From Pseudomonadota bacterium (GTDB taxonomy: Bacteria > Pseudomonadota > Gammaproteobacteria > Enterobacterales > JBCCZV01): a DNA stretch of 58,831 nucleotides. Made by a program: the position numbers and the translations under genes. Within the stretch, counting starts at the first letter, position 1, and every line of letters starts with the position of its first letter. Below the pieces are notes generated by a model that worked only from the letters and a program-made list of their open reading frames with translations, ran no database searches and was not told the origin of the DNA. Location of the stretch: assembly GCA_039187085.1 (NCBI GenBank), contig JBCCZV010000006.1:1-58831 (forward strand), in the 5' to 3' direction. Below are positions 14,745 to 32,557 of the stretch, piece after piece.

Positions 14745-14879
14745 ATGTCAGAAAAGATCAAGCCCCTCACTGCAAAACAAGAAGGTATCGTAACCACAGT
14801 GATCGAAGAATTTAATCATCACCGGATTCCTATCTTACTGAAAATTAAAGTACCTAATATTATCTTTTTCTATAATTAG
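14745..14879 (+). pseudogene. Possible truncated remnant of a small hypothetical gene (44 aa)
   Basis: ATG ORF MSEKIKPLTAKQEGIVTTVIEEFNHHRIPILLKIK... ending at the convergent kelch gene stop; family resemblance is from recall only. Confidence 0.3.
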
Positions 14880-15934
14880 TCTAGATTGAGTAGATCAAAC
14901 TTTAACACCTGATCGCTTACTGCTTGTCGTTCTAGCATCCCACCCAAAATATATCCATCATCACCATCAATAATCAAACCCCGGTGATCCATAGAGTTCG
15001 TGGTAACTTTGAGATGTTTTTGCCATTTTTGTTTTTTCATGTCCCAGGACAATATACTGCCTAAAGGTGAACTAGGCTTGCCATTATACCCAATACCATT
15101 AAAGTTATAAGGATTATCACTGCCACCAATAAAAACAATTTTATTGTTATAAGCTGCTGCCGCGCTACGATAACGTGCTGGGCCAGGATGAGATGGGATT
15201 TTTTTCCAAGTAATTTTTTTTATGTCTTTCAAGTCAATAGTGCCATGCCAAGCTTCGTTTGATATTTTAAATTGGCGTTTACCATCAACGACTGCAGCCA
15301 CCTTGACCCCATCAACCACTAATAATTCATTCTTTATGATGCCTCCGGCATGACCGAAGACTGGAGTTCCTGGAAATGTCGTCGCTTTATGCCACTCAAA
15401 GGTTTGCGTATCAAAAATTTGTACATCTTTAACGTTGCCCGTGTCGTGCCAACCAGAAACAAGATAAATGTAACGATCTTGATAGACAAGAGCGATAGAA
15501 TCATCCACCGGTATAGGCATGTCAGATATTTTTTTTATGGTGTTGGTTGAGGGGATCAGTTGATGTACATCAGGCATTGATTTTTCTTCATGATTTTCTG
15601 CAACGGTATAGCCGCCAAAAATATAAATATTGCCACCAGCGGTTGCTGCGATACTGGCTAATCTGCCTTCTTTCCATGGTACATGAGATAAAGTCTGGCT
15701 TTTTTGTTGTTTTATCGAAAAGCTCATCACAAGGTTACTGACCGCTTTCCAATCTTTTGCACTTTTTAATCCATTAAAGGAATAAAGAATGAGATCATCT
15801 TGCGTTTTGATATGGGCAACGGCGTTATTAGCAATAGGATGATTGAGCTTACCAATGAGCTCTATATCCTCGCTATAACCCGTTAGACTAAAAAGAAAAA
15901 AGAAAAATACGGCAAATGTTTGAAAAATATTCAT
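14876..15934 (-). CDS. Secreted kelch-repeat beta-propeller protein (NanM/galactose oxidase-like)
   Basis: Signal peptide; repeated IYIFGG, IYLVSGW, LLVVDG, IVFIGG, YILGG kelch motifs. Confidence 0.85.
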   Translation of the reverse strand: MNIFQTFAVFFFFLFSLTGYSEDIELIGKLNHPIANNAVAHIKTQDDLILYSFNGLKSAKDWKAVSNLVMSFSIKQQKSQTLSHVPWKEGRLASIAATAGGNIYIFGGYTVAENHEEKSMPDVHQLIPSTNTIKKISDMPIPVDDSIALVYQDRYIYLVSGWHDTGNVKDVQIFDTQTFEWHKATTFPGTPVFGHAGGIIKNELLVVDGVKVAAVVDGKRQFKISNEAWHGTIDLKDIKKITWKKIPSHPGPARYRSAAAAYNNKIVFIGGSDNPYNFNGIGYNGKPSSPLGSILSWDMKKQKWQKHLKVTTNSMDHRGLIIDGDDGYILGGMLERQAVSDQVLKFDLLNLD

Positions 15935-16053
15935 TGTGAATGACCTAAAAAGTTATTTTCACAATGTTATACCGTATTTTGACCAAAAATCCTATTAATG
16001 ATAATTATTGACCTTAAATGATTGTACTTATTACTTGAAACGAAGATCTCTAT

Positions 16054-17220
16054 TTAGAGAAAACGCTTTAAAATTGATTGTGTTGTCGTAATCGTGAGCT
16101 CTACCTGAGCATGACTCTGTTTAAACCCTCTCCCTATGCCTTGTATTCGGTTTCTAGAAATCCCTTTTTTCACGAACCATTCGATTACGCGTTGGGTTCG
16201 TTTTGATGACTGAGTGAGGTCTCTCATCGAATTAACTTCCTGTTGATTGGCATAACCTTCAACGATCAGTATACCTTCTTTATCATTGGTTAATATAGAG
16301 TGGAAAATTTGTAGTTGTTCAAGCTGTTGTTGCGAAAATTGATTTAACAGAAGTGTTTGTTGTTGAGACAGTTGTAGTGATTTTTTGAATACTATGATTT
16401 CATCTCTATCATAAATTTCACAGCCATGACTATTGACAATGACATTTTTATGAGTAGAAGGGCATTTGTCTATGGTATTTGATATACCATCATTATCATT
16501 ATCGTAGTGTGACTGCTCTGGAGCAACGGGTTTGGGAGGTAAAGAAGAATCCGTGCCTTTCTGATGGGTCAATGAAGAATTAATCATAGTCTGAGGTTGG
16601 TTGTTTTTGTGAACAAGTAGTTGATTTTTAGAGGAATGAGAAGGTATTTTCTTTATTGCTGTTTTAAATGGTTTTGTATTTTTTTCAAAAAAATATTCAA
16701 AGCCTGCATAAATAGAATAGTCCATAAAAGACTCTTCTAAATGATAATCTGCAATGGCATTAAGGTTAAGGTGCCAGCGAGTGCTAATAGGTAGGTTAAC
16801 TCCAGGACCAAATCTTAATAAAGTATCTCCCTGAGTACCCTCGGTTAATGGGTTTATTTCCTCATGAAAAACGCCAAATTTCCATGAAGGTATTAAATTG
16901 GAAGGTTCATCCGATACTATCGGATGAAAAAAGTCATACAGTCGATAGTGAAAATTAATACCAAAACGCGAATAATCGATGTGTTCTCCCGAAGATAGCT
17001 TATTATCCTCTTCATAAGCCATTTCTAGAGACCAGGAGTCGCTAAGCTCCATACCTAAATGAAATCCCTCACCAAACCGACTTTCTAATTTTTGTTCAGT
17101 ATCATGTTCTGTTAATACTTTAAATACACTCATTGAGTAATCTGCGAATAGATTACTAGAAACACAGAACAAAAAAATTAACATAAATAGTGTGTTATAA
17201 TAGTTAAATCGTTTTTTCAT
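16054..17220 (-). CDS. OmpA-family outer-membrane protein (beta-barrel, TSP3-like linker, divergent OmpA C-domain)
   Basis: Signal peptide; barrel ending YAGFEYFF; DNDNDGISNTIDKCPST...GC; C-terminal VEGYAN...SKRTQRV...GISRNRIQGIGRG; 20 bp downstream of the HlyD gene. Confidence 0.78.
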   Translation of the reverse strand: MKKRFNYYNTLFMLIFLFCVSSNLFADYSMSVFKVLTEHDTEQKLESRFGEGFHLGMELSDSWSLEMAYEEDNKLSSGEHIDYSRFGINFHYRLYDFFHPIVSDEPSNLIPSWKFGVFHEEINPLTEGTQGDTLLRFGPGVNLPISTRWHLNLNAIADYHLEESFMDYSIYAGFEYFFEKNTKPFKTAIKKIPSHSSKNQLLVHKNNQPQTMINSSLTHQKGTDSSLPPKPVAPEQSHYDNDNDGISNTIDKCPSTHKNVIVNSHGCEIYDRDEIIVFKKSLQLSQQQTLLLNQFSQQQLEQLQIFHSILTNDKEGILIVEGYANQQEVNSMRDLTQSSKRTQRVIEWFVKKGISRNRIQGIGRGFKQSHAQVELTITTTQSILKRFL

Positions 17221-17239: not shown

Positions 17240-18670
17240 TTAACGTTCTTTAATACTTTCTTGTTGGTATTTCAATAAAGGAGCGAGAAAATATTCTATG
17301 ACTCGTCGTTGCCCAGTTTTAATTTCTGCTGATACTGACATACCAGGGAGCAATTCAACGGTTTTGTTATTGACACGAATATGATTCTTTTTGAGTTTAA
17401 ATCGTAAAGGATAGACTAAGCCAAACTGTTCGTGCTCTACAGCGTCCTGGCTAATAATGATGAGTTCACTATCGACAGTACCATATTTGGTGAAAGGAAA
17501 TGTATGGACTTTTATTGCTGCAAAATCTTTCAGTTTAATGTAGCCAATATCCTTATTAGGAAGTAATGCTTCGACGATTAAAATGTCATTCTTGGGTACG
17601 ATATGCATAAGCTCTTGTGCTGGCGTCACAACTTCATTGATACTGGTTAAAGATAACTGTTTCACATAACCAGACACAGGTGCTCTCAATTCGTAGAAAT
17701 CATTTTGTTCTTTGAGCTTACTTCTCTCTTTAGTTAAGGTGTTTTTCTTTACACGTAATTCTTCGATTAGCTGTATTGAATTAGAGCGATATTCACTTAA
17801 ATTAGCATATAATTGATGTTTAGATTTGTTAAGGTTGGCTTCTAATTCATTTTGTCTTGCCATTGCTAAGGTTAAGTTTTGTTTGGCATCAAGGTATGCT
17901 TTTTCGGCATCGAGTAGTTGAATATGAGAAGTGATTTGTTGTTGTGCAAGTTTCCGATAAGCGTCTCTTTGTTGCGCAATTAATGGCAACGTTTGTGATA
18001 ATGACTTGATAGATTCATGATTAGTCACAATAGCCGAACGTTGCTCATTAATTTGGCTGAAGAGAACACGGATTTTGTTTTGATATTCTTGCCAGCGTTC
18101 AGAAAGTATTAACCATTGAAAGTTTTTTTGTTCCGTATTGATGCTCGATAAATTTTTGATGAAATCGTTTTTCAGTGAATTGTCATTTAGTAAAAAGTCA
18201 TGATGAAAATGGTCGCTGTTTGTATTGATACGTTTTTGCAACTTCAAAAAAAACGTTTCTCTCAACCATGCATTTTCTACGCTACCTAATTCTTCAGAGA
18301 GGCGTGCAAAATCTGTTTGTATAATTGTGTTATCGAAGCTGACAAGCTTTTCACCTTTTTCTACAAACTGTCCCTCAGTAACCCAAATGGTTTTGACCAT
18401 GCCCTGTATAAAGGGTTGAATTTTTTTAACTTTTGATGTCGGGATGATTTTACCTTCGGCAACGGCAACAATATCAATTTTCCCCCAAAATGCCCAGCCG
18501 ATAGCACCGACGAACAACAGGAGTAATGTCCACGCTAAAACTCTACCAACAGGGGACGGGGGTTTATCTTGCACCTCAAGAACACCAGGTACGAAATCGT
18601 ACATATCTCTTGAGACTTCAACAGGATCATTGTCTGAACCTAAAGGTTGGTTATGATTAGAGGTTGTCAA
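17240..18670 (-). CDS. hlyD: Type I secretion membrane fusion protein, HlyD family
   Basis: DIVAVAEGKIIP, LRAPVSGYV, FPFTKYG, LLPGMSVSAEIKTGQRRVIEYFLAPL; 4-bp overlap with the ABC gene. Confidence 0.93.
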   Translation of the reverse strand: MTTSNHNQPLGSDNDPVEVSRDMYDFVPGVLEVQDKPPSPVGRVLAWTLLLLFVGAIGWAFWGKIDIVAVAEGKIIPTSKVKKIQPFIQGMVKTIWVTEGQFVEKGEKLVSFDNTIIQTDFARLSEELGSVENAWLRETFFLKLQKRINTNSDHFHHDFLLNDNSLKNDFIKNLSSINTEQKNFQWLILSERWQEYQNKIRVLFSQINEQRSAIVTNHESIKSLSQTLPLIAQQRDAYRKLAQQQITSHIQLLDAEKAYLDAKQNLTLAMARQNELEANLNKSKHQLYANLSEYRSNSIQLIEELRVKKNTLTKERSKLKEQNDFYELRAPVSGYVKQLSLTSINEVVTPAQELMHIVPKNDILIVEALLPNKDIGYIKLKDFAAIKVHTFPFTKYGTVDSELIIISQDAVEHEQFGLVYPLRFKLKKNHIRVNNKTVELLPGMSVSAEIKTGQRRVIEYFLAPLLKYQQESIKER

Positions 18671-20934
18671 GACTGTGAGCTCTTTTGTGGAGGCGTATTG
18701 GGTTTAATAATGACTCTTCGTGGAGGATGCTCTCCATAGACATTGCCATTTTGTAGGGCATAAAGTCTCGCATAGTGACCTTGCTTTTTTAATAATGCAT
18801 TATGAGGACCACTTTCTACAATTTTTCCTTTTTCCATAACAATAATACGATGACATCGCCTCACAGTACTTAAACGATGAGCGATAATAAAAACACTTCT
18901 ACCACGACATATTTCTTCCATATTATTTTGTATGATGCGTTCTGACTCATAATCCAGCGCACTGGTTGCTTCATCAAATATTAAAATTTTAGGATTGGTT
19001 AAAAGAGCGCGGGCAATAGCAATACGTTGACGCTGTCCTCCGGATAATTGACAACCACTTTCCCCCACAGTTGTGTCATAACCTGCATCGAGTTCAGAAA
19101 TGAAATCATGTGCACCAGCCAATTTAGCAACATTGATAATTTCATCCATGCTTGCACTAGGTGCTGTCATAGCAATATTATCTCTAACGGAGCGATTGAA
19201 TAGAAAGTTTTCTTGAAGAACCACGCCCACATGTTGACGTAACCACCCAGTATCAACGCTTGCTAAATCAACGCCATCAATTAAAATACGTCCTGATTCC
19301 GGCGTGTAAAGTCTTTGAATAAGTTTTGTTAGTGTACTCTTTCCGGAACCGGAACGTCCAACAATACCGGTAACTTCACCGGCTTTAACCGCTAAAGATA
19401 CATGGTTGAGTATCGGCTGTGCATCGGGACGGTAACGAAATACCACATCATCCAAAGTTACATCACCTTTTATCTCTGATAAAGTTGTGCGGTTAGGATC
19501 GTAGGTTTGTTCTGTCGGTGTATTGAGAATGTCACCAAGCCTTGCTACTGAAATGGCCGCTTGTTGAAAATCTTGCCAAAGCTGTACTAACTTTAAAATA
19601 GGGTTACTGACTCGTCCTGCAATCATATTAAAAGCAATAAGCTGACCCACACTAAGTTCACCTGACATGACTAATTGCGCACCAAAATAAATAATTAAAA
19701 TCGTGGTGAGTTTATTAATAAAAGCGGCTATTTGACTGGCTATATTGCCGAGGTGTTGTGTTTTAAAAGAAGACTTGACGTAATCCGCTAATTGATTCTC
19801 CCATGTCCTGCGCATATTCGGTTCAAGTGCAAGAGCTTTAACGGTTTGTACGCCTGTGACTGATTCCACTAAAAAAGCTTGGTTTTGTGCGCCGTACTTA
19901 AATTTTTCATCTAAACGCTTGCGAAGAATAGGCGTGATGACTATTGATAAAACAATGTAAAAAGGAATGGTGAGTAAAACAATCACTGTTAAGTAAGGAC
20001 TGTAAAACCACATAACGGAAAAAAACACCAAGGTAAATAACAAGTCAATGACTAAAGTGAGAGCACTTCCTGTAATAAAGTTACGGATACTATCCAACTC
20101 TTTAACACGAGCAACACTATGTCCAACGGGCCGATTCTCAAAATAAGCGAGAGGCAGACCTAACAGATGAGTAAAGAGTTTCGTTCCCAGTTCCACATCA
20201 ACGCGATTGGTGGTATGGCTAAATAAATAGGTACGAAACCCTTCAAGAAACACATCAAATAAAATAATGCTCACAAAAGCAATGGTTAACACATCTAATG
20301 TGGTTAAGCCATTATGGAGTAACACCTTATCCATAACCACTTGAAAGAATAAGGGAAGGACTAAAGCAAAAATTTGCAAAAAAAACGAAGCAATAAAAAC
20401 TTCATAAAATTGTTTTTTATATTTTTTAAAAACAGGAATAAACCAGCTAATATCAAACTTAGCAGCTTTACTTTTAAAATAGCCTTGCTTGTTACTAAAC
20501 AGCAATAATTTCCCTGTCCATTTTTTAAGCAGTTCTTCTTGGTTGACTATTTGTGGTTTTTGTTGACGCGGATCTTGTAACAAATAATGAGTCGAAGATT
20601 TATTCGTTTCTTGATGGTTTGCATCTTCATTTTCTTGAAAAATGTTTTTGCCAATAATGACAAAACTACCATCGTTTAATTCGGCAATGGCTGGTAATAA
20701 ATGTTGGTTTAAGTCATCAGTTTTACAGTGAAAACGTTTTGCTTTTAATGAAAGAGATTTGGCTGCTCGTAAAATATCAACATCACTGAAATGTTGGTTG
20801 GGTTGAGAAAATTCACGTTGTAAAGATTCAAGAGAAGCCGGTGTGTCTAATATTTGAGCAAGTATAACTAAACAATGCAAGCCTGTGTCTAAGGTGTTTT
20901 CCACAGAGGAGGGAGGAGTGATACTTCCAGTCAT
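18667..20934 (-). CDS. hlyB: Type I secretion ABC transporter, HlyB family, with C39-like domain
   Basis: PLFFQVVMDKVL, Walker A GRSGSGKST, LSGGQRQR, ILIFDEATSALD; N-terminal DTGLHCL in place of the C39 DCG motif. Confidence 0.95.
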   Translation of the reverse strand: MTGSITPPSSVENTLDTGLHCLVILAQILDTPASLESLQREFSQPNQHFSDVDILRAAKSLSLKAKRFHCKTDDLNQHLLPAIAELNDGSFVIIGKNIFQENEDANHQETNKSSTHYLLQDPRQQKPQIVNQEELLKKWTGKLLLFSNKQGYFKSKAAKFDISWFIPVFKKYKKQFYEVFIASFFLQIFALVLPLFFQVVMDKVLLHNGLTTLDVLTIAFVSIILFDVFLEGFRTYLFSHTTNRVDVELGTKLFTHLLGLPLAYFENRPVGHSVARVKELDSIRNFITGSALTLVIDLLFTLVFFSVMWFYSPYLTVIVLLTIPFYIVLSIVITPILRKRLDEKFKYGAQNQAFLVESVTGVQTVKALALEPNMRRTWENQLADYVKSSFKTQHLGNIASQIAAFINKLTTILIIYFGAQLVMSGELSVGQLIAFNMIAGRVSNPILKLVQLWQDFQQAAISVARLGDILNTPTEQTYDPNRTTLSEIKGDVTLDDVVFRYRPDAQPILNHVSLAVKAGEVTGIVGRSGSGKSTLTKLIQRLYTPESGRILIDGVDLASVDTGWLRQHVGVVLQENFLFNRSVRDNIAMTAPSASMDEIINVAKLAGAHDFISELDAGYDTTVGESGCQLSGGQRQRIAIARALLTNPKILIFDEATSALDYESERIIQNNMEEICRGRSVFIIAHRLSTVRRCHRIIVMEKGKIVESGPHNALLKKQGHYARLYALQNGNVYGEHPPRRVIIKPNTPPQKSSQS

Positions 20935-21567
20935 TATGAAACAAAAGTCCTTTTTTGAACTAGGGTAAAAATTTTGGCCATTCTAGAAGGCTTCTTGATA
21001 AACGTCAATGAATTTGTTGTTATTACAAAATAGGTCTTTTCAAGATTACACCGTTGATAAAAACTGAGTGCATTGAATATAAAGAACAAGAATTTTAGAA
21101 GAGGATAGGTTTATTTTGTGAATGGTTAGGTTTACGTGATAACAATAATGATTGCTATAAATCAAAAGAAATAAAGTTGAGAAAAATGAATCGTCAGCAC
21201 GACAGCAAGCAATGTCATTTACAATAAACAAAGTATATAGGGTTTTTAGCATAACCGAATATGAAAAAAATATTAGGTTTTGGAAAGACGTTACAACGGA
21301 GTTTCCATCATCCTATATAGAGTTTCAATGAACCACGTGATCATGATTTTATTACAGGTGCGTTAGAGTTTTTCTAAAAAACACCTGAACACTTGACAGT
21401 CAAAATGAATTCAATAAACATGGTCGAAGGCATTAATCAATGACGTTCATATTTTTAAATTTCCTTTTTTTAAAAAATTAATGCAAAACAATAAAGAGCA
21501 TATTGGGATGAATGATATTTTCTGGCTAAATCAATTTTTATCATATGTTGCTACATAGGAAAATACC

Positions 21568-21975
21568 ATGAGTTACGTGTTTGAAAACATCACGCAAGAT
21601 GATGTGGAAAAAATTTTGAAAGATGTCAGCGCTTATCGACGGTTAGAAGGACTGATAAAACGTCGTGATTATTTTGAAGATATCCAAAGTATCTATTGGT
21701 CTATTAACCGTGAGATAGATTGCTATTTTATGTATGCACCGAAAATAGATGTGCGTTCACCCAATGAAAATTTTATGTTTTTCTTTGCTGGGCAGATGCA
21801 TCGACTGGTTTTAACTCGTAAGCCAAGATTTTTGAAATTTGATCGTAAAGTGCCTGAGACGCATCAGCAAGCGGCTATCGTCGAATTGAATAAAGCCTAT
21901 AAGGCTTTTGGGGTGATAGGTCAGGGTGAAAACTCTAAGCAGTGGATGGATTTTAACGTGGAGTTCGCATCATGA
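21568..21975 (+). CDS. Putative cytoplasmic immunity/partner protein of RTX1, copy 1 (orphan)
   Basis: AGGA RBS; paralog of 23929 and 24838; ATGA overlap with a toxin stub; no signal peptide. Confidence 0.7.
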   Translation: MSYVFENITQDDVEKILKDVSAYRRLEGLIKRRDYFEDIQSIYWSINREIDCYFMYAPKIDVRSPNENFMFFFAGQMHRLVLTRKPRFLKFDRKVPETHQQAAIVELNKAYKAFGVIGQGENSKQWMDFNVEFAS

Positions 21976-22064
21976 TAGAAAGAACTTACAGAAGTGCTCT
22001 TGAAGAACTACGCAGCCGTGATCTTCTTACCAACATGCCATGTTGGCTTGAATCCTCTTTTTGA
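21972..22064 (+). pseudogene. RTX1 N-terminal stub (MIERTYRSALEELRSRD...), 30 aa
   Basis: First 17 codons nearly identical to the start of the 25254 ORF, then divergence and a stop. Confidence 0.85.
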
Positions 22065-22086
22065 TTTAGTCAAATAACGACAACAT

Positions 22087-22215
22087 TGTCAAAAATGAAT
22101 GACTCACTAAAAAATTTTTAAAAGCTCCCTTGACATCATCAAGTCATCACATAGTATAACGTTTAATCGTTTAGGAAAGCCATCTCATAAAAGGATGCAT
22201 CTCATACTTTATTCC
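22087..22215 (+). promoter_or_regulatory. Conserved cassette promoter/leader, copy 1
   Basis: TGTCA-N8-TGAC; TTGACA (22130)-16 bp-TAGTAT; two AGGA motifs; repeated at 24460 and 31409. Confidence 0.75.
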
Positions 22216-22298
22216 TGTTTTTTATATCATATGGACTGGCTTTAAGAGGTTAAAGAGTTTTTTTGCTGTCTGTTTTAAAAAAATTAGGACCATCATCT

Positions 22299-23054
22299 AT
22301 GCCAATTTTTCGCACCAATGAATTATGCCTGATATTTGGAGTATCTTTATTCATTACAATATTAATTATTTTATCGTTATCATTCGATTGGTTTCGAGAA
22401 GGCAAAAAAGAATGGCCAGAACGAAAGCATCCGCGTTTACCGTATAATTATGAACGTTATGGCATTGTACCGGGTGAGCGCAGTCAGATAACTATTCATG
22501 GTATTGTGCTTTGGACGCCGGAGGAGCACCGCTATGAGTTATCACCTTCGTGGTGGTTGAGCGGTCCCAAAGAGGCTTCTGTTATGGAAATCTACCCGGA
22601 GTTCACGCATTGGTTACCTCGGGAAAATAAAGCGGATAAAAATGCAGGCGAGGTGAGGATCAAGCTGTGGTACAAAGGCGATGAGGTAGATTATTCTCTG
22701 TTGGATTTTCAATGGCAGGATGAAGATTGGATTGCGGTTATAGCTCGGCCAGAATTAGGTTTAACGGAATATCGCAGAGCCCATAGAGGCTGGGGGTATG
22801 TCACCTTTCAATCACAGGATAATGTTTTACTTACGCCTAATGCTCCGCAACTTACCATCAAATGTTCTGAAGGATTGAGTGGTATTGCGTTTGATTATGA
22901 GCAGTGTTGGAGCGGCTATCGTTTGCCTAATGGTTTGCGGGTGTGGTTCTTTTTTCATAAGGCGTTGTTGCCACATTGGAAGGCACTGTATCAATTCACG
23001 GACAAAAAGGTGCAGTCTTTGTTAGTGGCACCCAATAACGAGGTGTTCTCATGA
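22299..23054 (+). CDS. Membrane-anchored hypothetical protein, putative orphan immunity A
   Basis: AGGA RBS; one N-terminal TM helix; paralog of the next gene (GWGYVTFQ, QCWSGY, WFFFHKALLPHW). Confidence 0.7.
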   Translation: MPIFRTNELCLIFGVSLFITILIILSLSFDWFREGKKEWPERKHPRLPYNYERYGIVPGERSQITIHGIVLWTPEEHRYELSPSWWLSGPKEASVMEIYPEFTHWLPRENKADKNAGEVRIKLWYKGDEVDYSLLDFQWQDEDWIAVIARPELGLTEYRRAHRGWGYVTFQSQDNVLLTPNAPQLTIKCSEGLSGIAFDYEQCWSGYRLPNGLRVWFFFHKALLPHWKALYQFTDKKVQSLLVAPNNEVFS

Positions 23055-23767
23055 TATGGATGATTTTACGGTGTTTGGTGCTGATCCCATTAACGGTTGT
23101 AGGCATGTTGGCGTTGTTTCTTTGGGTGTATCCGGGCGGTCCAGCCACACCGTATGTTGGTACGCCAGAGTACTATGCGGCTTATGGCTTTGTGCCAGGG
23201 CAAAGCAACACCCTGTTGCTGGGGAAAACTTTACTCACGTTACCGCCTGGGCCACGCTATACCTTTGAGTCGTCCACCAAAACTATAGAAAAAGGTAAAG
23301 CCTCGAAAGTGTTATTTCGCATGGACTTTAGTCATCTGCTCGGTATTGCTGAGGATGCTTTGCCACATCAACGTAAATATGTACGTGTGCGGCTCTTTTA
23401 TGCTGGTCCGATTAATCGTAATGAACATGATTTGCGGTTGTCGCCTGAGCAATGGCATCGAGTAATTGATCGTGAAGACTGGGGGTTGTGGGAATTTCAC
23501 CGAGCAGGTTTTAGAACAGGCTGGGGCTACCTTAGTTTTCAAGCAAAAGATGGGCAGGTGGAAATACCGGTCAATGGTGCTTTGCATTTTAGATGTGCGG
23601 GAATGGAGGATAATAGACACGATTACAGTCAATGTTGGGGAGGTATGCAAATGCAGCATAATCTGCGTTTTTGGTTTTTTGTACCCAAAGCATTAATGCC
23701 GCATTGGCAAGTGGTGTATGAGACGATTCTCAAAAACATTCAAGGGTTTGTGGTGCAGATTCATTAA
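23051..23767 (+). CDS. Membrane-anchored hypothetical protein, putative orphan immunity B
   Basis: ATGA-coupled to the previous gene; N-terminal TM; GWGYLSFQ, QCWGGM, WFFVPKALMPHW. Confidence 0.7.
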   Translation: MIWMILRCLVLIPLTVVGMLALFLWVYPGGPATPYVGTPEYYAAYGFVPGQSNTLLLGKTLLTLPPGPRYTFESSTKTIEKGKASKVLFRMDFSHLLGIAEDALPHQRKYVRVRLFYAGPINRNEHDLRLSPEQWHRVIDREDWGLWEFHRAGFRTGWGYLSFQAKDGQVEIPVNGALHFRCAGMEDNRHDYSQCWGGMQMQHNLRFWFFVPKALMPHWQVVYETILKNIQGFVVQIH

Positions 23768-24131
23768 TTGATTTTAACGTGGAGTTTGAATAATCATAGC
23801 AAAATTTAGAGTGAAGGATGAAAACCATCAGGAGGTGGACAATTAAAAGATAGAGAAAGAGTGAAGATAAATACGTTCATGTCATTGAATACCATAACGA
23901 AATGATAACAACACAAAAGGAAAATACCATGAGTTACGTGTTTGAAAACATTACACAAGATTATGTGGAAAAAATTTTGAAAGATGCTAAAACAAATTCA
24001 AGTGTTGAACTGAGTTTGAAGCACCGTAAATATTTTGAAAATAAACGAGAGACGGAGCAAGAAACACCGTGGGCGATTAATCGTGAAATCGATTGCTACT
24101 TTATGAAAACGCCAAAAATTGATATTCGTTC
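23755..24131 (+). repeat. Direct repeat of 24664-25040 (spacer plus 5' half of the partner gene)
   Basis: Near-identical from GCAGATTCATTAATTGATTTTAACGTGGAGTTTGAATAATC through ...GATATTCGTTC. Confidence 0.9.
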
Positions 24132-24348
24132 ACCCAATGAAAATTTTATGTTTTTCTTTGCTGGGCAGATGTATCGACTAGTTTTAACTCGTAAACCAAG
24201 AGCTTTGAAATTTGATCGTAAAGTGCCTGAAGCGCATCAGCAAGCAGCTATCGTCGAATTGAATAAAGCCTATAAAGCTTTTGGGGTGATAGGTCAAGGT
24301 GAAAACTCTAAGCAATGGATGGATTTTAATGTGGAGTTTGCATCATGA
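23929..24348 (+). CDS. Putative cytoplasmic immunity/partner protein, copy 2 (chimeric, orphan)
   Basis: N-half matches copy 3, C-half matches copy 1; RBS AAGGA. Confidence 0.72.
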   Translation: MSYVFENITQDYVEKILKDAKTNSSVELSLKHRKYFENKRETEQETPWAINREIDCYFMKTPKIDIRSPNENFMFFFAGQMYRLVLTRKPRALKFDRKVPEAHQQAAIVELNKAYKAFGVIGQGENSKQWMDFNVEFAS

Positions 24349-24425
24349 TGGAAAGAACTTACAGAAGCGCTCTTGAAGAACTACGTAGCCGTGATCCTAT
24401 TACCAATATGCCAGTATTGGTTTGA
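24345..24425 (+). pseudogene. RTX1 N-terminal stub (MMERTYRSALEELRSRDP...), 26 aa
   Basis: First 18 codons match the RTX1 start, then divergence and a stop. Confidence 0.85.
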
Positions 24426-24459
24426 ATCCCGTTTTGATTTAGCGAAATAACAACACAAT

Positions 24460-24588
24460 TGTCAAAAATGAATAGCGCACTAAAAATTTTTTAAAAAGCT
24501 CCCTTGACATCATCAAGTCATCACATAGTATAACGTTTAATCGTTTAGGAAAGCCATCTCATAAAAGGATGCATCTCATACTTTATTC
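24460..24588 (+). promoter_or_regulatory. Conserved cassette promoter/leader, copy 2
   Basis: TTGACA (24504)-16 bp-TAGTAT; near-identical to 22087-22215. Confidence 0.75.
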
Positions 24589-24837
24589 TTATTGTTTATA
24601 CCACTTGAATTTTTTTAAATTAAGGAATTTTTTCCATTAACAAAAATTATATTTTTTTGCGGCGCAGATTCATTAATTGATTTTAACGTGGAGTTTGAAT
24701 AATCATAGCAAAATTTAGAGTGAGGGATGAAAACCATCAGGAGGTGGACAATTAAAAGATAAAGATAGAGTGAAGATAAATACGTTTATGTCATTGAGCA
24801 TCATAACGAAATGATAACAACACAAAAGGAAAATACC

Positions 24838-25257
24838 ATGAGTTACGTGTTTGAAAACATCACGCAAGATGATGTAGAAAAAATTTTGAAAGATGCTAAA
24901 ACAAATTCAAGTATCGATCTGAGTTTGAAGCACCGTAAATATTTTGAAAATAAACGAGAGACGGAGCAAGAAACACCGTGGGCTATTAATCGTGAAATCG
25001 ATTGCTATTTTATGAAAACGCCAAAAATTGATATTCGTTCGCCTTTTGAAAACTACATGTTTTTCTTTTCTGGGCAAATGTACCGATTGGTTTTAACTGA
25101 GATACCAAGGAAATTAACTTTTGATTGCAAAATTCCTAAACTTCAAAAACAAGAAGCGATTACTGAATTGAATAAAGCATACAAAACTTTTGGGCTTTTT
25201 GGAGAAGGTGAAAGATCGCACCAATGGATAGATTTTGACGTGGAGTTTGTATCATGA
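24838..25257 (+). CDS. Putative cognate immunity/partner protein of RTX1, copy 3
   Basis: ATGA translational coupling to RTX1; paralog of copies 1 and 2. Confidence 0.75.
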   Translation: MSYVFENITQDDVEKILKDAKTNSSIDLSLKHRKYFENKRETEQETPWAINREIDCYFMKTPKIDIRSPFENYMFFFSGQMYRLVLTEIPRKLTFDCKIPKLQKQEAITELNKAYKTFGLFGEGERSHQWIDFDVEFVS

Positions 25258-28200
25258 TGGAAAGAACTTACAGAAGCGCTCTTGAAGAGCTACGCAGCCG
25301 TGATCCTGCAACTGGTGCGTTGAAAACTTTTAGTTTGGATGAACTGCTACAGCTGGTGGATGATGTATCAGGTAAGGTATTAAGTAGTCAGCCAGGAGAT
25401 ACCTATTTATTATTCAGTGGAGTAACTCCGAATGGAGTTTCTGGTTCTGAAATTACGGGTAAGCTGGCGACTTTTGCCAATGCAGATATCTACGATATTG
25501 GTAGCAGTGAAATTGGTAAGCTACTCACTGATGATAATTTTTTAAATGCATTGAATCGGACTATTGCTCAAGAAGAATTGGGTATTAATTTCACTGATGC
25601 AACTCAGAATCAATTAAATCAGATTAGCGATATAGCAGAAAAAATATTATTTGGAAAAGATACCAATGGAAACCGTGTGGATTCTGCCTCTTTTTGGGAT
25701 CTGGCCTCAGAAAAATATGTGTCTGCGGCTGAAGGTAATTTTAAATTAGTCTTACCCGATGCCTTAAGCGATACCAGTGTGTTTGTGCAAAGTGAACTAC
25801 CTGCCTTATTGAATAATACTAACATTGATGAAATTGATGGTGTTTCCCCGAGCGGAACTCAAAGCCTTAGTGGATTCACAAGGCATTGATGCAGTAAAAC
25901 AAGTGCTCGTGGCTAACTCATTTACACAACTGGTGTTATCCGGCCTTAATGTGGAAACGGCTGATGATATTTCACAAGCCGCCATTGATCGTTTTGTAGA
26001 TTTTGATATTAATCGTTTAAATGCCGAAGGTCTAAGTCCCGAACAAATTAATCTAATGCAAGAAGCGTTGGGACAAGTTGATAGTGACTTAAGAAGCTAT
26101 CTTAAAAATGGTAGCGATATCGCTCTCGATTTTGGTAAATCTCTCGGTGATAAATTGTTAAGAGCTTTAGGGCCGATTGGTATTACGCTCAGCTTTATGA
26201 TTGCCAGTGAAGAAGCGAGTGCCTTAGAGGCTGCAGGCAACTCCGAAGCGGCCAAAGAGCGCATGGAGTTATGGGCTGTAGAGTCGGCCTCTTCAGAAGC
26301 CGCAGGTGTGGCTTCGGGAACTATCGCAGGCATTGGTGCTGCTGCATTGGTTGCTGCGGGTATCATCTCTGCTCCAGTTGCTATTGTTACTGTGATAGGT
26401 GCGAGCTTGGCGGGTGGCTATTTCGGTGCCGAAGGGGGCAATGCTTTTTACGATTGGTTAAAAGCAGGTAGTCCTGAAAAACGAGAACAACTGATTGCGG
26501 ATTTGAGCCGGTTATTCTTTGGTGATGAAATCAATCTACCTGAAGATATCCGCGATGGTAACTTTAATTTCTCTAACTTGGATTATGTCATTCGTAGTAT
26601 TCGTGAAACACCGGCTGAAATTGTTGATAATGCGCGGAGTGATCAAGCGTGGGCTTATGCTATTCGAGAGTTAAACAGTTTCGTGGTAGAAGGAGCCAAC
26701 TATGCTCAACACAATACCGATGGCTCTTTGGATTTGAGTAACCTGAGTGATGAATATTTAACATCACGTGCACAAATGATCGTTATCAAGGGTTTGTTTG
26801 ATCGTTTAGGTTTTGATTACGATGATCGGTTAAATACATTTTTGGGTTTATTGCCAGCCCCGATTGACGGTGATTATATATACACAGACATGACATCGGG
26901 TTTGACTTTAGACGTTGACGGTTTTAATCCTTTAACATTAGAAAGCCATCGCATCACCTTTGGTAGTCAAAATGGTGAGCGGATAGAAGGCGGTAGTATT
27001 GAAGACGAACTTTATGGTATGTCGGGTGATGATGTTCTAGTTGGACAAGCTGGAAATGATTATTTAGAAGGCGGCGAAGGCAACGATACTTACATTTTTA
27101 ATACAGGAGATGGTCAAGACATCATTCGTGATCAACAAGGATTGAATCAGTTGGTGATCAATGGCAATACCATTCGTCAACTGCAAGCGGTTATCGGTAA
27201 CTTAGGCGTGTATCAAGCGGTTGATAACAGTGGTAATCTTCTGGATGAAAACACCTTGTATATTATTAATGGTAATCGCTTAATCATTACTGTGGGTGGT
27301 GTAAATAGTGGTGATTTTATCACCGTAGAAAACTTCGATTTAGCCAACAACGCTTTTGGTATTAATCAAGAAGCTCTAGAACCTGAAGAGCCAATCACCG
27401 ATAACGCATTTGTTTGGAATGCTGAAAATTTAGAAGCGCGTTATGGTGCTAATTTCTTGAATAATGCCGGTTATTTTTTAGCGTATGAGCGTATTACTAA
27501 AGGAGGATGGGATCATTCACAATCGATGGTTTATGATGCGATTAACGATCCTTATTTGATTGAGCAAGATGGGCGTACGCTAGGACGTTTTGAAGGTTCA
27601 GGCATTAATGACAACCTGGTTGGTGGGGATAATGTTTTTAATGACCTGAGTGGTCTGGCAGGCGATGATAACATTACAGCGGGCAATATTGGCGGGTTTT
27701 ATATCGGTGGACAAGGCTCCGATGTGCTCACCGGTGGTTTAGGGAATGATTTTATTTGGGGGGGCGATAACTGGCAAAACCGTCAAAATTTCTTGAATCA
27801 AAGCCAAAGTCTTTTTGATTTTTACAATGAAAATTTGCAGGAAACGGTGGGTGATAGTAATCGCATTGTGGGCGGTGCCGGTAATGATGTGATTTCCGCA
27901 GGTGCTTTCGATGATTTTGTTCGCGGTGGCGAAGATAATGATATTGTTTTTGGCGAAACCGGTAGCGATATTCTCTATGGTGAAGCGGGTAACGATACCG
28001 TATTGGGCGATTCGCGCAGTGCGTTTAGCATCAATGTTGCCAATGGTGAAGTGATACGTAGTGCGTATTTTGAATTCTTTAATGACATTGATAATAGTGT
28101 TGTCGCCTCTACCGATTTCGATGATGTCATCAATGGAGGCGCGGGTAATGACAGCCTATACGGTGAGCGAGGCAATGATTTTATTCTTGCTGAAACGGGT

Positions 28201-30792
28201 AACGATGTGATTCAAGGTGATCGGGTTTACACCTATTCTTCCGCCAACCTTATCACTAACTTAAGCGAAAACGCCACTCAAGCGGCATTCACATTATCAG
28301 GACAGTTTCACGGTGATGATGTCATTTATGCGGGGGTCGGTAATGATACTGTGTTAGGTAACGGCGGCAATGATACCATTTATGCCGGTGCTGATAACGA
28401 TTTTGTTTTGGGTGACGACCATGTTACTGATGAACAATATCACGGTAATGATATCCTGTATGGTGAAGGTGGTGATGATACATTGATAGGTGGCATGGGT
28501 AATGATCAACTCTATGGTGGTGCCGATAATGATACGCTGTTAGGTGATGGCGAAGTGATTGAGGAACAAGGTGGACCGAACCAGAGCTTATTTCGTTTTC
28601 GAGATAACCCACAATTTACTGAAGGTGGGGATGATGTTATCGATGGTGGTAGTGGTAACGATACGCTGTTTGGTGGTGCAGGTGATGATCTATTGTTGGG
28701 AGGTAGTGGTAACGACGCACTTTTGGGTGGTCGTGACAATGATTATCTCAATGGTGGTGCAGGTGATGATGAACTGCAGGGCAATCAAGGCGATGACATT
28801 CTCAATGGTGGCAATGGTAATGATGTTTATGTTTACGAACAAAATGCGGGCTTAGACCGTATCGAGCAAGCGGGCGATGGTACGGATACGTTATTTTTCA
28901 ATCAAATCACATTAGATCGTTTATCGTTCTCGCAAGAGGGTAACGATTTATTGATTCTTGTCGATGGTAACGCGGATCAAGGCATACGTGTCGTCAATCA
29001 CTTTTTAGGTGGTGATGCTGCGATTGAACAAATTCAAGCTCAAGGTGCTAATACACTCTTTATAAGAGATATTGAGCGTCTTGTTGCCAGTGATATCGCC
29101 AAAGGTGATTTTGATCAAGTCTTTACAGGCACAGCAACAGATGATGAGCAATTAGTAGGTAACACAGGTAATGATCGTGTGAGAGGGCTTGCAGGTAAGG
29201 ATATCTTGTTTGGGTTACAGGGGGATGATCTATTAGAAGGTGGCTCTGATAATGATAGACTGATCGGTGGTGATGGTAGCAGCACTAATTCAGGGGCTGA
29301 CACCTTAGTGGGTGGAGAAGGTAACGATTATTTACGCGGTCAAGATGGTAATGATACTTACATTGGTGGTAGTGGGAATGATAGTTTTATTTATGAAGCG
29401 ATGAATGGGACTAAAGTGATTGATGATCAAGGTGGTGGTATTGATACCTTGTATTTGCAAGATTTTGCCATCGAAGATTTTGCCATCGAAGAGATTGCAT
29501 TTTATCGTGATGGCGATGACCTTATTATTTTACCTGAGAATGATGTGTCTCAAAAAATTGAAGTGTTGAAACATTTTACCGATGTGAATAATACATTAGA
29601 GTTTATTCTCTATGGCGAAGATGCGCTGCAAGCCAGTGTGTTTGACCTCACTCAAAACATAGAAGCCTATCCCGGTGATGATGCCTTGGGCGGCAGTACG
29701 CCACCTGATACCGGAAATCCGGATGGTGGAACGACTCCTGGTGCAGGTAGTCCTGGTGGTTGGGATGGTGATGATACGGTTATTGGTACAACCAATGATG
29801 ATCTGCTGGTGGGTGGTCTGGGTGATGATAGCTTAGAAGGTCAAGCGGGTAATGACTTCTTAATGGGTGGTGTAGGTGATGATACCTATATCATTGACGG
29901 TGCAAGTAATGATGTGATCGTTGATACTGATGGCGTTAATCGTGTGCAGTTTGCACAAGGTATTGGGATTAATGATGTCACTTCCGGTTTGACTCGCGCT
30001 AATGACGATTTAGTGATCACGATTGCATCTACTGGTAATCAATTGCGCATTAGTGATTTTTTTAGTGTGACCAACACGATAGCCACCTTTGAATTTGCCG
30101 ATGGAGCACGAATCCAGGCCGAACAAATCTATGGGGCTAATGCGCCTGTTAATAGTGTTTCCAGTGGAGAGTTACTGTTTGCAACGGATACACAACCTAA
30201 TGTATTAGGCACTGATTTGAGCGAAGTGATTATGGGTAATGATGCCGATAATGAGCTCAATGGTGCTGGAGGTGATGATTATCTTGCCGGTGGTGAAGGC
30301 AATGATATTTACCAAATTACAGCGAATCATGGTGTTGATACCATTATCGATCGTGATGGTAGTAACACATTACTTTTTAGCGCTGAAACAAATGTCACTG
30401 CCAGTAATTTCTTTGAGAAGCTTTCGGTGTTTAGTAATCTTGATGAGCTTTATATCGACACAGGGAGTGGACAAGTCATTGTTGAAGACTTCTTCTCTCT
30501 AGCCAATACGGTTTCAACCTTTACGTTTGCGGATGGTAGCCAATTGACATCTGAGGAGATTATCACTGCTTATGGAAGAACGCCTCCTTCACAAGAGGGT
30601 GATATTGTATTACCTGAATCAAGAGTGACTGAAACGTCTTTAGCAAGTATGGATGCTTCGCTGAGCTTGATAAAACAAACGGATTTATTGATCGATGCCT
30701 TGTCGAGTTTATCTCACAATGCTGACAACGAAGAGGTTGCTATCATTCAACCCAGGGAAAGTACGTTTATCACGGCGAGCACCAGTCTTTAG
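25254..30792 (+). pseudogene. RTX1: RTX/hemolysin-type Ca-binding T1SS substrate (~1845 aa) split by a +1 frameshift near 25845
   Basis: ORFs 25254-25889 and 25825-30792 join as ...IDEIDGV-PRAELKAL if one base of GTTTCCCC is removed; hydrophobic G/A-rich helices; many GGxGxDxLx nonapeptides; C-terminal QTDLLIDALSSL. Confidence 0.85.
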
Positions 30793-30801
30793 TGAGAAGT
30801 C

Positions 30802-30831
30802 ATTGCTGGATTGATGTTTCAATCCAGCAAT
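30802..30831 (+). terminator. Perfect 13-bp hairpin after RTX1
   Basis: ATTGCTGGATTGA-tgtt-TCAATCCAGCAAT; no U-tract. Confidence 0.55.
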
Positions 30832-30850
30832 CATAGTCGTTAAAAGCCTA

Positions 30851-31250
30851 CATGATCTGAAAAACTTTGATTGTGGAAAATCACCTATGATTGAATTTCT
30901 TTCTCGGTTTGGCATAAAGCACGGTAAGTTGGGATTAAGTAAAACGTACATACAAAAAAACTGATATTCCTGTGACAAAAAGTCTACTGAATTATCCTGT
31001 TCCAGTCGTGGTACTTGATACTCGCCCGCCTTGCCGCGAGTAAGCAGTACCATGCTAAAGGGTTGGGGAGTAAGTCATTAGTGTATGCACTTCGTCAAGG
31101 AGCTAATTTAAGCAAGGTTGGATTACCTACTTATTTGAGGTGTTAGATGATGAGGCATTGGCTTTTTGTCAGAAGTTCGATCTGTTTATGCCTTTTACCA
31201 AAGATCCGATGCGCCTTTTCGTGCCTATGAGTACACTTGAGCAAATTTGA
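30851..31250 (+). pseudogene. Degenerate GNAT toxin (TacT/AtaT/KacT-like) remnant
   Basis: Fragments in different frames: HDLKNFDCGKSPMIEFL...HGKLGLSKTY, YPVPVVVL, AKGLGSKSLVYAL, LDDEALAFCQKF...PMRLFVPMSTLEQI*. Confidence 0.75.
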
Positions 31251-31408
31251 GATTTGGACGTTCAACAAACAACATCCTTTCTTTTTAAAGAAGTAAACTT
31301 ACTGAAGTCTAATACGACGCTTGTAAATTTCAATTCTCGTTACCGACACAACACAAGTTTTTTAGAGTAATTTTTAAAAATCCAAATCCCATCATTTAAT
31401 AACACCAT

Positions 31409-31536
31409 TGTCAAAAACAAATGACAGCCTAAAAAAATTTAGAATGCTCTATTGACATCATGGAGTCATTACTTACTATACCCTTGACTTCTTAAGGAAA
31501 GTCATTGCATAAAAGGAACGACCTAATACTTTATTC
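31409..31536 (+). promoter_or_regulatory. Conserved cassette promoter/leader, copy 3 (diverged)
   Basis: TGTCA-N8-TGACA; TTGACA (31452)-16 bp-TACTAT; AGGAAAG..CATAAAAGGA..ATACTTTATTC conserved. Confidence 0.72.
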
Positions 31537-31570
31537 TTATTTTTCCCTTCATCTTTTTTTAGGAAAAGCG

Positions 31571-32557
31571 ATGTTACGACTTTTTATGGTGTTGTTTTAT
31601 TGGTTGATGAATCCATTAAATGCGGCAAGTTTTGATTGCAGCAAAGCCAGTCGCCCTTTGGATAAAACCATTTGTCAACATGCCCCGTTAAGCGAACTGG
31701 ATGAAAAAATGGCAAAGATGTATTTTGAGTTAAGAGAGTCGCTGCCGAGCCAGCAGGTCGAATCTTTGTTAAAAGCGCAACGACAGTGGTTAAAGGAGCG
31801 GAGTCAATCGTGCAAGACAACGGATGCTGATTGTCTAATTTCGATGTATCAAAAACGCTTGGAAGCCTTACAACAGCGTCTACAAACCCATTCAGCATTT
31901 TTAGCACAACGTGCTCAACAGGCGAAAGGCTGGCAATTACAATCCGGACAAGATAAACCGCTTTGTCAGGATGTATTAGCGACGCTACAGGCTAACTATC
32001 CCACGAGTTCACCACGCTTTTGGTTTTCACCCGAAGGGAAACCCTTTAAAGCATTGGATTGGGAGGTGCTTAATTACATGCCCTACAATATTTTATTGCA
32101 AGAAGCCCTATATGAAAAAAAATTATCCCCTGAAGGTTGGCTAAAGGAAATCGACCGCCTTGAGGCCCTGAGCCAACAAGATTTTTTGTCAGGGCGAGCA
32201 GTTTTACCCTGGGATTACGATGGTAATGGGACAAAAGAGGGGTTATTGCAAGTGTCTTGGTTGCAAGATGATGGGCGTTATCATGTGCAAAACTTTATCA
32301 TAGATTCAAGTCAAAAATACTCTAAATATCAGCATTCAGCCCATGTTCGACTCTTTACGCGTGGTAAACCGCCGGTGTTATCGGGTGAAGCGGTGTTATA
32401 TCAAGACCAGCTCTATGGGTTCGTTAAGCAAGGAAAATTTTGGCAATTGCGTCAGTATTTCAGTGAGATGTATCAAAAAGATCAAGGTGTGCCCGTTTCG
32501 CCAACTCTCTGTACCTTAGCACTGACATCGGTGAGTTTAGGAGGAGAGTCATCATGA
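31571..32557 (+). CDS. Exported LprI (DUF1311) lysozyme-inhibitor-domain protein, putative immunity for RTX2
   Basis: AGGA RBS, signal peptide, ASFDCSKA...TIC...LSELD...QRQWLKER...C...CL...Y..R LprI pattern; C-domain paralogous to the next gene. Confidence 0.85.
   Translation: MLRLFMVLFYWLMNPLNAASFDCSKASRPLDKTICQHAPLSELDEKMAKMYFELRESLPSQQVESLLKAQRQWLKERSQSCKTTDADCLISMYQKRLEALQQRLQTHSAFLAQRAQQAKGWQLQSGQDKPLCQDVLATLQANYPTSSPRFWFSPEGKPFKALDWEVLNYMPYNILLQEALYEKKLSPEGWLKEIDRLEALSQQDFLSGRAVLPWDYDGNGTKEGLLQVSWLQDDGRYHVQNFIIDSSQKYSKYQHSAHVRLFTRGKPPVLSGEAVLYQDQLYGFVKQGKFWQLRQYFSEMYQKDQGVPVSPTLCTLALTSVSLGGESS

Follow-up and report, generated by a model that had tools for sequence, protein, structure and literature searches.

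The window analysed here, a 58,831-nt stretch of contig JBCCZV010000006.1 (assembly GCA_039187085.1, Enterobacterales), carries three tandem copies of a small gene, which we call the partner gene, and each copy leads into the start of a gene for an RTX protein, RTX1. All features lie on the plus strand unless stated otherwise. Copy 1 (21568-21975), a candidate immunity gene, encodes 135 aa and matches a hidden Markov model (HMM) of its family, A4 (described below), at E 5.2e-41. Copy 2 (23929-24348; a longer version of its open reading frame (ORF) begins at 23902) and copy 3 (24838-25257) each encode 139 aa, and their proteins are 81% and 65% identical to that of copy 1, respectively. All three stop codons overlap an ATG, as ATGA, and this ATG opens M[I/M]ERTYRSALEELRSRD at 21972, 24345, and 25254; a search with a 35-nt pattern of this start gave three matches, against 0.00 expected from 100 shuffles. 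Behind copies 1 and 2 the toxin-start frame closes after 30 and 26 codons, which leaves two 5′ stubs, at 21972-22064 and 24345-24425, that were located by the ORF list and the start motif. The conserved RTX1 part spans 17-18 codons in both (17 in stub 1), and the toxin domain is absent from both. The ORF listing and direct reading thus agree with the first-pass annotation on the coupled genes and the stub lengths. It had also stated that only copy 3 leads into full RTX1; copy 3 does enter RTX1, but RTX1 itself is split into two frames.

The first frame of RTX1 (25254-25889, 211 aa) carries a predicted ADP-ribosyl cyclase (ARC) toxin domain at residues ∼40-197. The second (25825-30792, 1655 aa) contains a glycine-rich hydrophobic stretch, RTX repeats (HemolysinCabind 1.1e-84), and a C-terminal region in common with a second RTX protein, RTX2. 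The frame shift falls within 25813-25889, near 25,845, where both frames are open; this is just after the ARC domain, and intact homologues are colinear across that point. RTX1 has the features of a type I secretion substrate, namely the repeats and adjoining ABC, C39, and HlyD genes at 17240-20934. The latter comprise an ABC exporter with a C39-like N-domain (18667-20934, minus strand; Pfam ABC_membrane 6.3e-57, ABC_tran 1.8e-37, Peptidase_C39 1.4e-14) and an HlyD-family membrane-fusion protein (17240-18670, minus strand; HlyD_3 2.5e-15), and are transcribed divergently from the partner-gene array. A general Pfam scan noted no TolC-type outer-membrane gene in the scanned part of the window.

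Both stubs end at the same junction and then run into a 150-nt element, D6. Copies 1 (22070-22222, with a promoter-like TTGACA-16-TAGTAT) and 2 (24444-24596) of D6 are 93% identical, and they hold the best promoter-like sites of the region, sigma-70-like with 10 of 12 consensus positions. Copy 3 (31392-31544, 76% identical) lies ∼600 nt past the RTX1 stop, 5′ of the RTX2 cassette and just before the genes that precede RTX2. D6 occurs three times in the genome, always in the window, and an Rfam scan of 20900-33300 at E ≤ 0.1 found no family, D6 included. Between D6 copy 1 and partner copy 2 are two overlapping paralogous genes (22263-23767) for proteins of 263 and 238 aa, which are 32% identical, each have an N-terminal hydrophobic segment, and form the sole such pair in the genome. 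No Pfam, NCBIfam, or PADLOC model matched either of them, and a word-index search with the 238-aa protein returned only itself; PADLOC had no model for seven proteins of the locus. Short broken ORFs at 30800-31250, between RTX1 and D6 copy 3, were suspected by eye to be a remnant of an acetyltransferase C-terminal part, an idea that was dropped because Pfam gave nothing there at E ≤ 1.

Mosaic Structure and Assembly of the Array

A sliding window over the three aligned units reveals that unit 2 is 86-100% identical to unit 3 from the upstream region to ∼24120 and 90-100% identical to unit 1 from ∼24120 to ∼24590. Recombination of copies 3 and 1 produced partner copy 2, whose 5′ part is copy-3-like and whose 3′ part is copy-1-like. 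Two islands are nearly identical in all three units. The first covers the ribosome-binding site and the first 19 codons of the partner gene, and the second covers its last ∼10 codons together with the first ∼18 codons of RTX1. Between the islands the partner genes are strongly divergent. Whole-gene ratios of non-synonymous to synonymous change (dN/dS; Nei-Gojobori) range from 0.21 to 0.24, with dS of 0.5-1.2. The recently shared segments give 0.13 for the 3′ part of copies 1 and 2 (9.5 synonymous and 5.5 non-synonymous changes) and 0.14 for the 5′ part of copies 2 and 3 (3 and 2), values that come from few counts. The overall dN/dS of about 0.2 indicates purifying selection on the copies; the counts in the shared segments are small, but none of the copies shows decay.

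The first-pass annotation had also listed two remnants of the partner-gene 3′ end (DFNVEFE*), at ∼23771 and ∼24679. Both are present (23770-23793 and 24679-24702), and a 17-nt motif for this end (DFNVEF) occurs five times in all, once in each of the three genes and once in each remnant (23770, 24679), versus 0.00 expected in shuffles. The two are better described as one remnant that was copied with a duplicated segment (23747-24046 and 24656-24955; 909-bp spacing, 95% identical).

Because the stubs continue into D6 past codon ∼18, unit 1 can be understood as the layout partner-RTX1-D6-(two genes)-RTX2 without its toxin genes. The simplest order of events would begin with a former immunity-RTX unit that lost its toxin gene from codon ∼18 to just 5′ of D6, leaving copy 1 and stub 1. 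Copy 3 and copy 1 would then have undergone an unequal crossover, the former contributing the 5′ part and the latter the 3′ part of the chimeric copy 2, which arose along with the second stub and the second D6. The second copy of the 263/238-aa gene pair would have been deleted afterward, with its last ∼12 bases remaining at 24656. The surviving pair behind D6 copy 1 could be an orphan immunity pair for the lost toxin.

This structure bears on the proposal in the first-pass annotation that the stubs provide homology for cassette exchange. Recombination among the units is real, as the mosaic break at ∼24120 demonstrates, but the one visible crossover lies inside the partner gene and not in a stub. 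The role given to the stubs finds no backing: the window holds no alternative toxin cassette, and the stubs hold 17-18 conserved codons and no domain.

The source genome is a 217-contig draft that is 90.9% complete. One marine-metagenome run, which may itself be the source of the window, contains 88% of sampled words of the stretch; two further runs from its study yielded no contigs, which is no evidence of absence. Logan contigs, an independent assembly of that run, recover what is unique to each copy without gaps, at 0-3 letter differences for each listed piece, and the region of the RTX1 frame shift is exact (one record over 25259-26100, 0 differences). An assembly artefact, which the first-pass annotation had set against its own reading, is unlikely given the 19-35% protein difference between copies, the Logan match, and the same layout in other genomes. 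A specific version of it is that co-existing strain alleles of a metagenome were joined into tandem copies. The draft state of the genome, the fact that the only run with the stretch is a metagenome, and the lack of a contig that bridges the repeats would all suit such a chimera. However, mixed alleles would split the read depth, whereas copy-specific pieces have a depth of 8.6-10.9 in the Logan contigs and the flanks have 10.3 and 9.9; the equal depth argues against strung-together strain alleles. Analogous arrays in two other genomes (G623 and G776, below) also count against it, and we regard the chimera as very improbable.

The RTX1 Head and Its Upstream Partner

The 211-aa frame of RTX1 on its own matches the Pfam family Rib_hydrolayse (ADP-ribosyl cyclase) at E 0.0045, below the cut-off, and its N-domain gives marginal matches in the PDB to 9ro8, an 'ADP-ribosylcyclase toxin' (E 0.0081), and to 9ouf (E 0.0095); these matches agree on one fold. 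A profile of six N-domains (A8) reaches E 1.9e-9 for 9ro8, 1.7e-9 for 9ouf, and 0.03 for the Aplysia ADP-ribosyl cyclase. The ESM Atlas model of the first ORF (predicted template modelling score (pTM) 0.77) matches a cluster of RTX proteins with a self-processing module (SPM) at a template modelling (TM) score of 0.71 over 164 residues, with weaker matches to X-Tfe effectors of the type IV secretion system (0.64), eukaryotic ARC (0.56), and a cluster of RHS proteins (0.46). A word-index search of the N-domain against longer proteins scored none of 4061 candidates.

In the alignment to 9ro8, W148 and E181 of RTX1 fall on a Trp and a Glu separated by 33 residues. The catalytic set of the Pantoea ARC toxin, as given in PMC12605009, is W273, E299, W323, and E356, and the spacing of the Trp and Glu of 9ro8 equals that of W323-E356; 9ro8 is probably this Pantoea toxin. 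E86 of RTX1, which is conserved in the relative in genome G029, may be equivalent to E299. Based on the profile and structure matches, we conclude that the N-terminal ∼200 aa of RTX1 form an ARC-fold (CD38-like) toxin domain, with predicted NADase activity.

The partner gene matched no Pfam, NCBIfam, or PADLOC model. A HMMER scan of 1.84 billion representative proteins with a profile of the three copies gave 67 matches at E ≤ 0.001 (two at ≤ 1e-10 and one at ≤ 1e-30), almost all of 127-164 aa and aligned end to end. Alignment A4 was built from 46 of the 67 matches and the two other window copies (48 rows), omitting two long two-domain proteins and the 19 weakest matches. None of its 48 members matches any Pfam immunity family. 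Imm74 (PF15603) in particular matched none at E ≤ 0.01 and had no six-frame match in the genome at E ≤ 1. A 7-row subset of A4 chosen for a W-A-I-D-R-E motif yielded two related loci. The partner-profile search of genomes found the family only in this genome (G000) among 61 relatives, and only in G000 and G375 among 401 genomes of the class. Copy 3 retrieved only the window's own three proteins in a word-index search (three matches among 10 candidates) and no usable match in an ESM Atlas feature search. By eye, the partner protein has neither a signal peptide nor a lipobox.

The near-invariant columns of A4 are M1, Y3, I16, W48, Y57, P62, A114, and G122, which include no typical catalytic residue, and no His, Asp, Cys, or Ser column is conserved across the 48 sequences. 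AlphaFold with this alignment produced a confident alpha/beta model, with a predicted local distance difference test score (pLDDT) of 89.8 and a pTM of 0.84; this superseded a poor model made from the three copies only (pLDDT 49.3). Searches with the fold found nothing clear, as the best Foldseek match in the PDB had E 0.3 and the best VIA-align match had Z 4.6 (root-mean-square deviation 3.9 Å, 92 aligned). GNAT acyltransferases are frequent among the weak rows of both lists, all below a meaningful level. Upstream 'C' genes of RTX operons usually encode activating acyltransferases, and the partner could be an analogue with the role of HlyC or CyaC, an idea to which the GNAT-rich matches of a confident model lend some color. 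It is nonetheless the least probable role we considered: the HlyC family (PF02794) matches none of the 48 members, no His, Asp, Cys, or Ser is conserved, and the partner ends soon after a long helix, without the C-terminal half of the GNAT fold.

A predicted complex of copy 3 with RTX1 residues 1-197 was classed as 'weak support' with a score of 0.53 (runs 0.58, 0.50, and 0.53). The best of three controls scored 0.00, at least 57% of contacts are shared between runs, and the partner pLDDT is at least 80. The pass mark of this procedure was reached by 116 of 157 solved complexes and by two of 215 mismatched pairs, with scores of 0.60 or less belonging to 18 of the 157 and to both passing mismatches. 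We treat the predicted complex as a lead only and give it little weight.

The Pairing in Other Genomes

A search with the RTX1 head among 401 genomes of the same order matched 10 at E ≤ 0.01, including this one. In five of the nine others (G029, G560, G623, G776, and G789), an N-terminal ARC-like domain has a gene or pseudogene of the partner family directly upstream. The A4 HMM, which was built without these loci, detects the upstream partners in a small ORF set at E 2.6e-9 to 4.7e-3, and hhalign of A4 with A6, the G029/Zoogloeaceae subgroup, gives a probability of 95.5% (E 1.5e-8). On these profiles, the upstream partners of the five genomes and the gene in the window belong to one superfamily. 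Genes of a type I secretion system (T1SS) adjoin the locus in G560, G776, and G789. As for the remaining matches, one genome has no partner-family ORF within its 3.2-kb locus, the match in G493 was rejected because it falls in an unrelated 269-aa protein, and an HMM scan, the only search made there, found no partner in G471 and G478.

Two of these genomes have arrays of their own. G623 carries four tandem units of 945-974 bp (L030 1382-5300), each with a 163-169-aa partner and the first 40 toxin codons. Three end as stubs with one shared junction, and the fourth enters a toxin of more than 876 aa with an ARC-like domain at residues ∼31-182. Identity among the three stubs is 98-100%, while the partner proteins differ by 21-31%. 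In G776 (L032 7281-9376, minus strand), the order is a partner, a 190-aa orphan ARC domain, two further partners, a 1366-aa RTX toxin, a C39-like ABC exporter, and a further gene. The orphan is a complete ARC domain (Rib_hydrolayse E 0.0019), its 3′ part is 86% identical to that of the full toxin, and it is by all appearances a true orphan toxin-immunity module with 5′ polarity.

The arrays allow a simpler explanation to be weighed, in which every copy neutralises the same RTX1 domain, amplification serves dosage only by raising the supply of inhibitor against a potent NADase that is made well ahead of its export, and the stubs are duplication end-points, with neither variant specificity nor toxin loss. 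Plain tandem duplication gives simple head-to-tail units with one shared junction, as are seen in G623, and the two stubs of the window also share theirs. However, the copies are strongly divergent, with protein identities of 65-81% in the window and 69-79% in G623 and dS of 0.5-1.2, and the window stubs run into D6, which otherwise lies beyond RTX1, so that loss of a toxin gene fits better than a duplication boundary. We consider dosage amplification unlikely to be the whole explanation.

The three other loci are informative about what the partner does. In G789 (L031 4501-8930), a partner pseudogene with at least five in-frame stops precedes an intact 1333-aa RTX toxin, in which the W148 and E181 columns hold Tyr and Asp, and an ABC exporter. 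G560 has ABC, HlyD, and ABC genes, a 210-aa gene, and a 150-aa partner that overlaps a 230-aa ARC-only protein by 4 nt, with an IS4 fragment nearby. In G029 the partner is of 165 aa, the ARC-like gene is truncated as well as frameshifted, and an IS3 gene is present. These cases bear on whether the partner is an export helper, that is, a holdase or chaperone that keeps the N-domain competent for secretion and has no protective role, as the first-pass annotation had raised against itself. Type I substrates need an unfolded state, the N-domain is made first, and the ATGA coupling to the toxin start is tight, all of which would suit a helper. On the other hand, G560 and G029 have intact partners beside ARC genes that lack an RTX or secretion part, and in G789 the partner has decayed beside an intact RTX toxin with changed catalytic columns. 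Each is a single case (n = 1), and together they favor immunity over an export helper, which we regard as improbable.

Members of the A4 type closer to the window's gene occur at four loci outside this genome. Two are beside solute-binding-protein genes, one is beside a partial second copy and a lipase-like gene, and the fourth is in a run of small tandem paralogous genes that resembles a poly-immunity locus. A Zoogloeaceae metagenome-assembled genome (L021 5866-13990) has a series of tandem paralogues: partner-superfamily proteins of 143/144 aa, a member of 138 aa, proteins of 161/170 aa that look like lipoproteins by eye, and three of ∼470 aa with signal peptides, also by eye. The series resembles a heterogeneous poly-immunity locus.

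A Proposed Immunity Role and Its Place Among Known Systems

We propose, with a probability of about 0.65, that the three genes are immunity genes for a type I-secreted NADase toxin that were multiplied and orphaned by unequal recombination and toxin loss. The partner would be a cytoplasmic inhibitor of the N-terminal ARC-type NAD(P)+-glycohydrolase domain of RTX1: it is predicted to bind and neutralise a head with NADase activity and so to protect the cell. Since the type I secretion signal is C-terminal, the toxic head would be made first and would sit in the producer cytoplasm before translation of the long RTX part is complete. The upstream ATGA-coupled gene would supply the inhibitor beforehand, holding the head inactive until the C-terminal signal appears. 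Extra immunity genes would build up by unequal recombination and toxin loss, and the orphan copies could provide either an extra dose of inhibitor or protection against variant ARC toxins of neighbours. The suggestion of the first-pass annotation that immunity alleles were kept after toxin loss is sound to this extent: immunity is the best reading of the partner, given the ARC head and the pairing in five genomes, and loss is plausible, given the continuation of the stubs into D6.

Several observations weigh against the immunity proposal. The known ARC immunity family that was tested, Imm74, does not include the partner family. RTX1 has Phe54 at the position of the first catalytic Trp in the 9ouf alignment, which leaves activity uncertain. 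With its gene frameshifted, the toxin may not be exported in this genome, and a genuine frame shift would mean that the ARC domain is produced with no secretion signal. The G029 partner is intact although its toxin is dead, so partner decay does not always track toxin decay. At none of the four closer A4-type loci did tblastn (E ≤ 1) detect an ARC-like gene in the 14-19 kb covered; these loci fit stray immunity genes and equally fit a family with another role. Finally, the repeats are bridged by no independent contig, and the order of the units comes solely from the original assembly.

The neighbourhood of RTX1 includes a second cassette (31505-41915), which consists of a 350-aa protein with a lysozyme-inhibitor LprI domain (8.9e-9), a 218-aa protein, and RTX2 (2890 aa). 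RTX1 and RTX2 are the only two such proteins in the genome. They align over the repeats and the C-terminus, from residue 387 of the second RTX1 frame, and their N-domains do not align. The RTX2 N-terminus matches Phage_lysozyme at 0.0024, below the cut-off, and the LprI-domain gene is two places 5′ of RTX2. From these facts, both toxins appear to have protective genes upstream, with each cassette behind a D6 element, in line with the immunity proposal, and RTX2 with its upstream genes may form a further toxin-immunity cassette served by this type I system. The intervening 218-aa protein has a signal peptide by eye. Just 3′ of RTX2 (42219-45041) is a gene for a 940-aa protein whose middle domain is of the hydrazine-synthase-alpha type (7.3e-18) and which also has a PD40 repeat and weak multi-haem motifs. 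On the other side, the genes after the type I secretion genes (14876-17220, minus strand) encode a Kelch-repeat protein of 352 aa and an OmpA/OprF-like one of 388 aa.

To our knowledge, the characterisation of ARC NADase toxins dates from no earlier than 2025 and is confined to delivery by the type VI (T6SS) and type VII (T7SS) secretion systems and by contact-dependent growth inhibition (CDI). In PMC12356396 and PMC12605009, bacterial ARC toxins are described as depleting NAD(P)+, with adjacent immunity proteins that fill the active-site cleft; the pairs include Tac1-Tci1 (T7SS, PMC12356396) and the Pantoea PAAR ARCtox-ARCimm (T6SS, PMC12605009), and T6SS, T7SS, and CDI are the delivery routes given there. 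The terms 'RTX', 'T1SS', and 'type I secretion' do not occur in the main texts of either paper, and Zhang et al. 2012 give T2SS (type II), T5SS (type V), T6SS, and T7SS as the secretion routes of Tox-ARC. The RTX1 head resembles these toxins in its fold by profile (E 1.9e-9 to 9ro8), in the small adjacent gene for a presumed inhibitor, and in belonging to a domain that is spread over several delivery systems. Unlike the known ARC toxins, in which the domain is C-terminal and the immunity gene, for Imm74 or another small protein, is downstream, RTX1 carries the domain at the N-terminus of a type I RTX protein, with an upstream partner of a different, unnamed family.

The likeness to orphan cdi/rhs modules, drawn by the first-pass annotation, is valid in part. 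Like the cdi/rhs and T6SS orphans described in PMC3482391 and PMC5472700, the array has tandem extra immunity genes, truncated homologous toxin pieces, and recombination between units. It also has one delivery part with alternative toxin domains (RTX1/RTX2). The polarity, however, is reversed: the toxin domain occupies residues ∼40-197, at the N-terminal end, and the partner gene precedes that of the toxin. The pieces in the window and in G623 are 5′ stubs of 17-40 codons without a toxin domain, so no toxin switching is possible, and an orphan that carries a toxin domain, as in cdi/rhs loci, occurs only in the relative G776, with a whole ARC domain.

Two characterised RTX systems have partial parallels. 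CyaA of Bordetella has an N-terminal enzyme domain, a hydrophobic segment, RTX repeats, and a C-terminal type I signal, and its accessory protein CyaC is an acyltransferase. RTX1 has the same overall plan, but the accessory CyaC is not an inhibitor, and no HlyC-family protein was found here, though the genome-wide part of this search carries no information because its control also matched nowhere. FrpC-FrpD of Neisseria meningitidis, as presented in PMC5472700, pairs an RTX protein that has a variable N-terminal domain of a few hundred residues with a same-operon binder of its N-terminal part. FrpD differs in being a surface lipoprotein thought to act in adhesion, whereas the window partner has no signal peptide or lipobox, and the RTX1 N-domain differs from that of FrpC in having the fold of an enzyme toxin. 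In the open-access papers searched, excluding supplements that might list ARC neighbourhoods, we found no description of type I or RTX-borne ARC toxins, of the partner family, of upstream immunity arrays for type I/RTX toxins, or of 5′-stub arrays.

A broader reading, which we put forward tentatively as a possibility, is that these loci represent an undescribed class of polymorphic toxins. Its members would be type I RTX toxins with a variable N-terminal toxic domain, here an ARC NADase, and a new upstream immunity family. Diversified immunity genes would accumulate in tandem between near-identical islands, one made up of the ribosome-binding site and the 19 opening codons of the immunity gene and the other of the 17-40 opening codons of the toxin. 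Selection or gene conversion would keep these islands as recombination handles by which units are gained, lost, and shuffled, in a mirror image of the cdi/rhs orphan arrays. If the immunity proposal is correct, the type I/RTX route, in which the domain order is reversed, would join those known for ARC toxins, along with a new immunity family whose members have about 135 aa and for which databases have no model. It would also follow that orphan-immunity arrays can arise when the 5′ end of the gene encodes the toxic domain, and the position of immunity genes upstream of type I toxins, with translational coupling, would have a simple rationale. The natural variants, which include the four-unit array, the orphan domain, and the dead toxin with a dead partner, would then offer a direct view of specificity and recombination.

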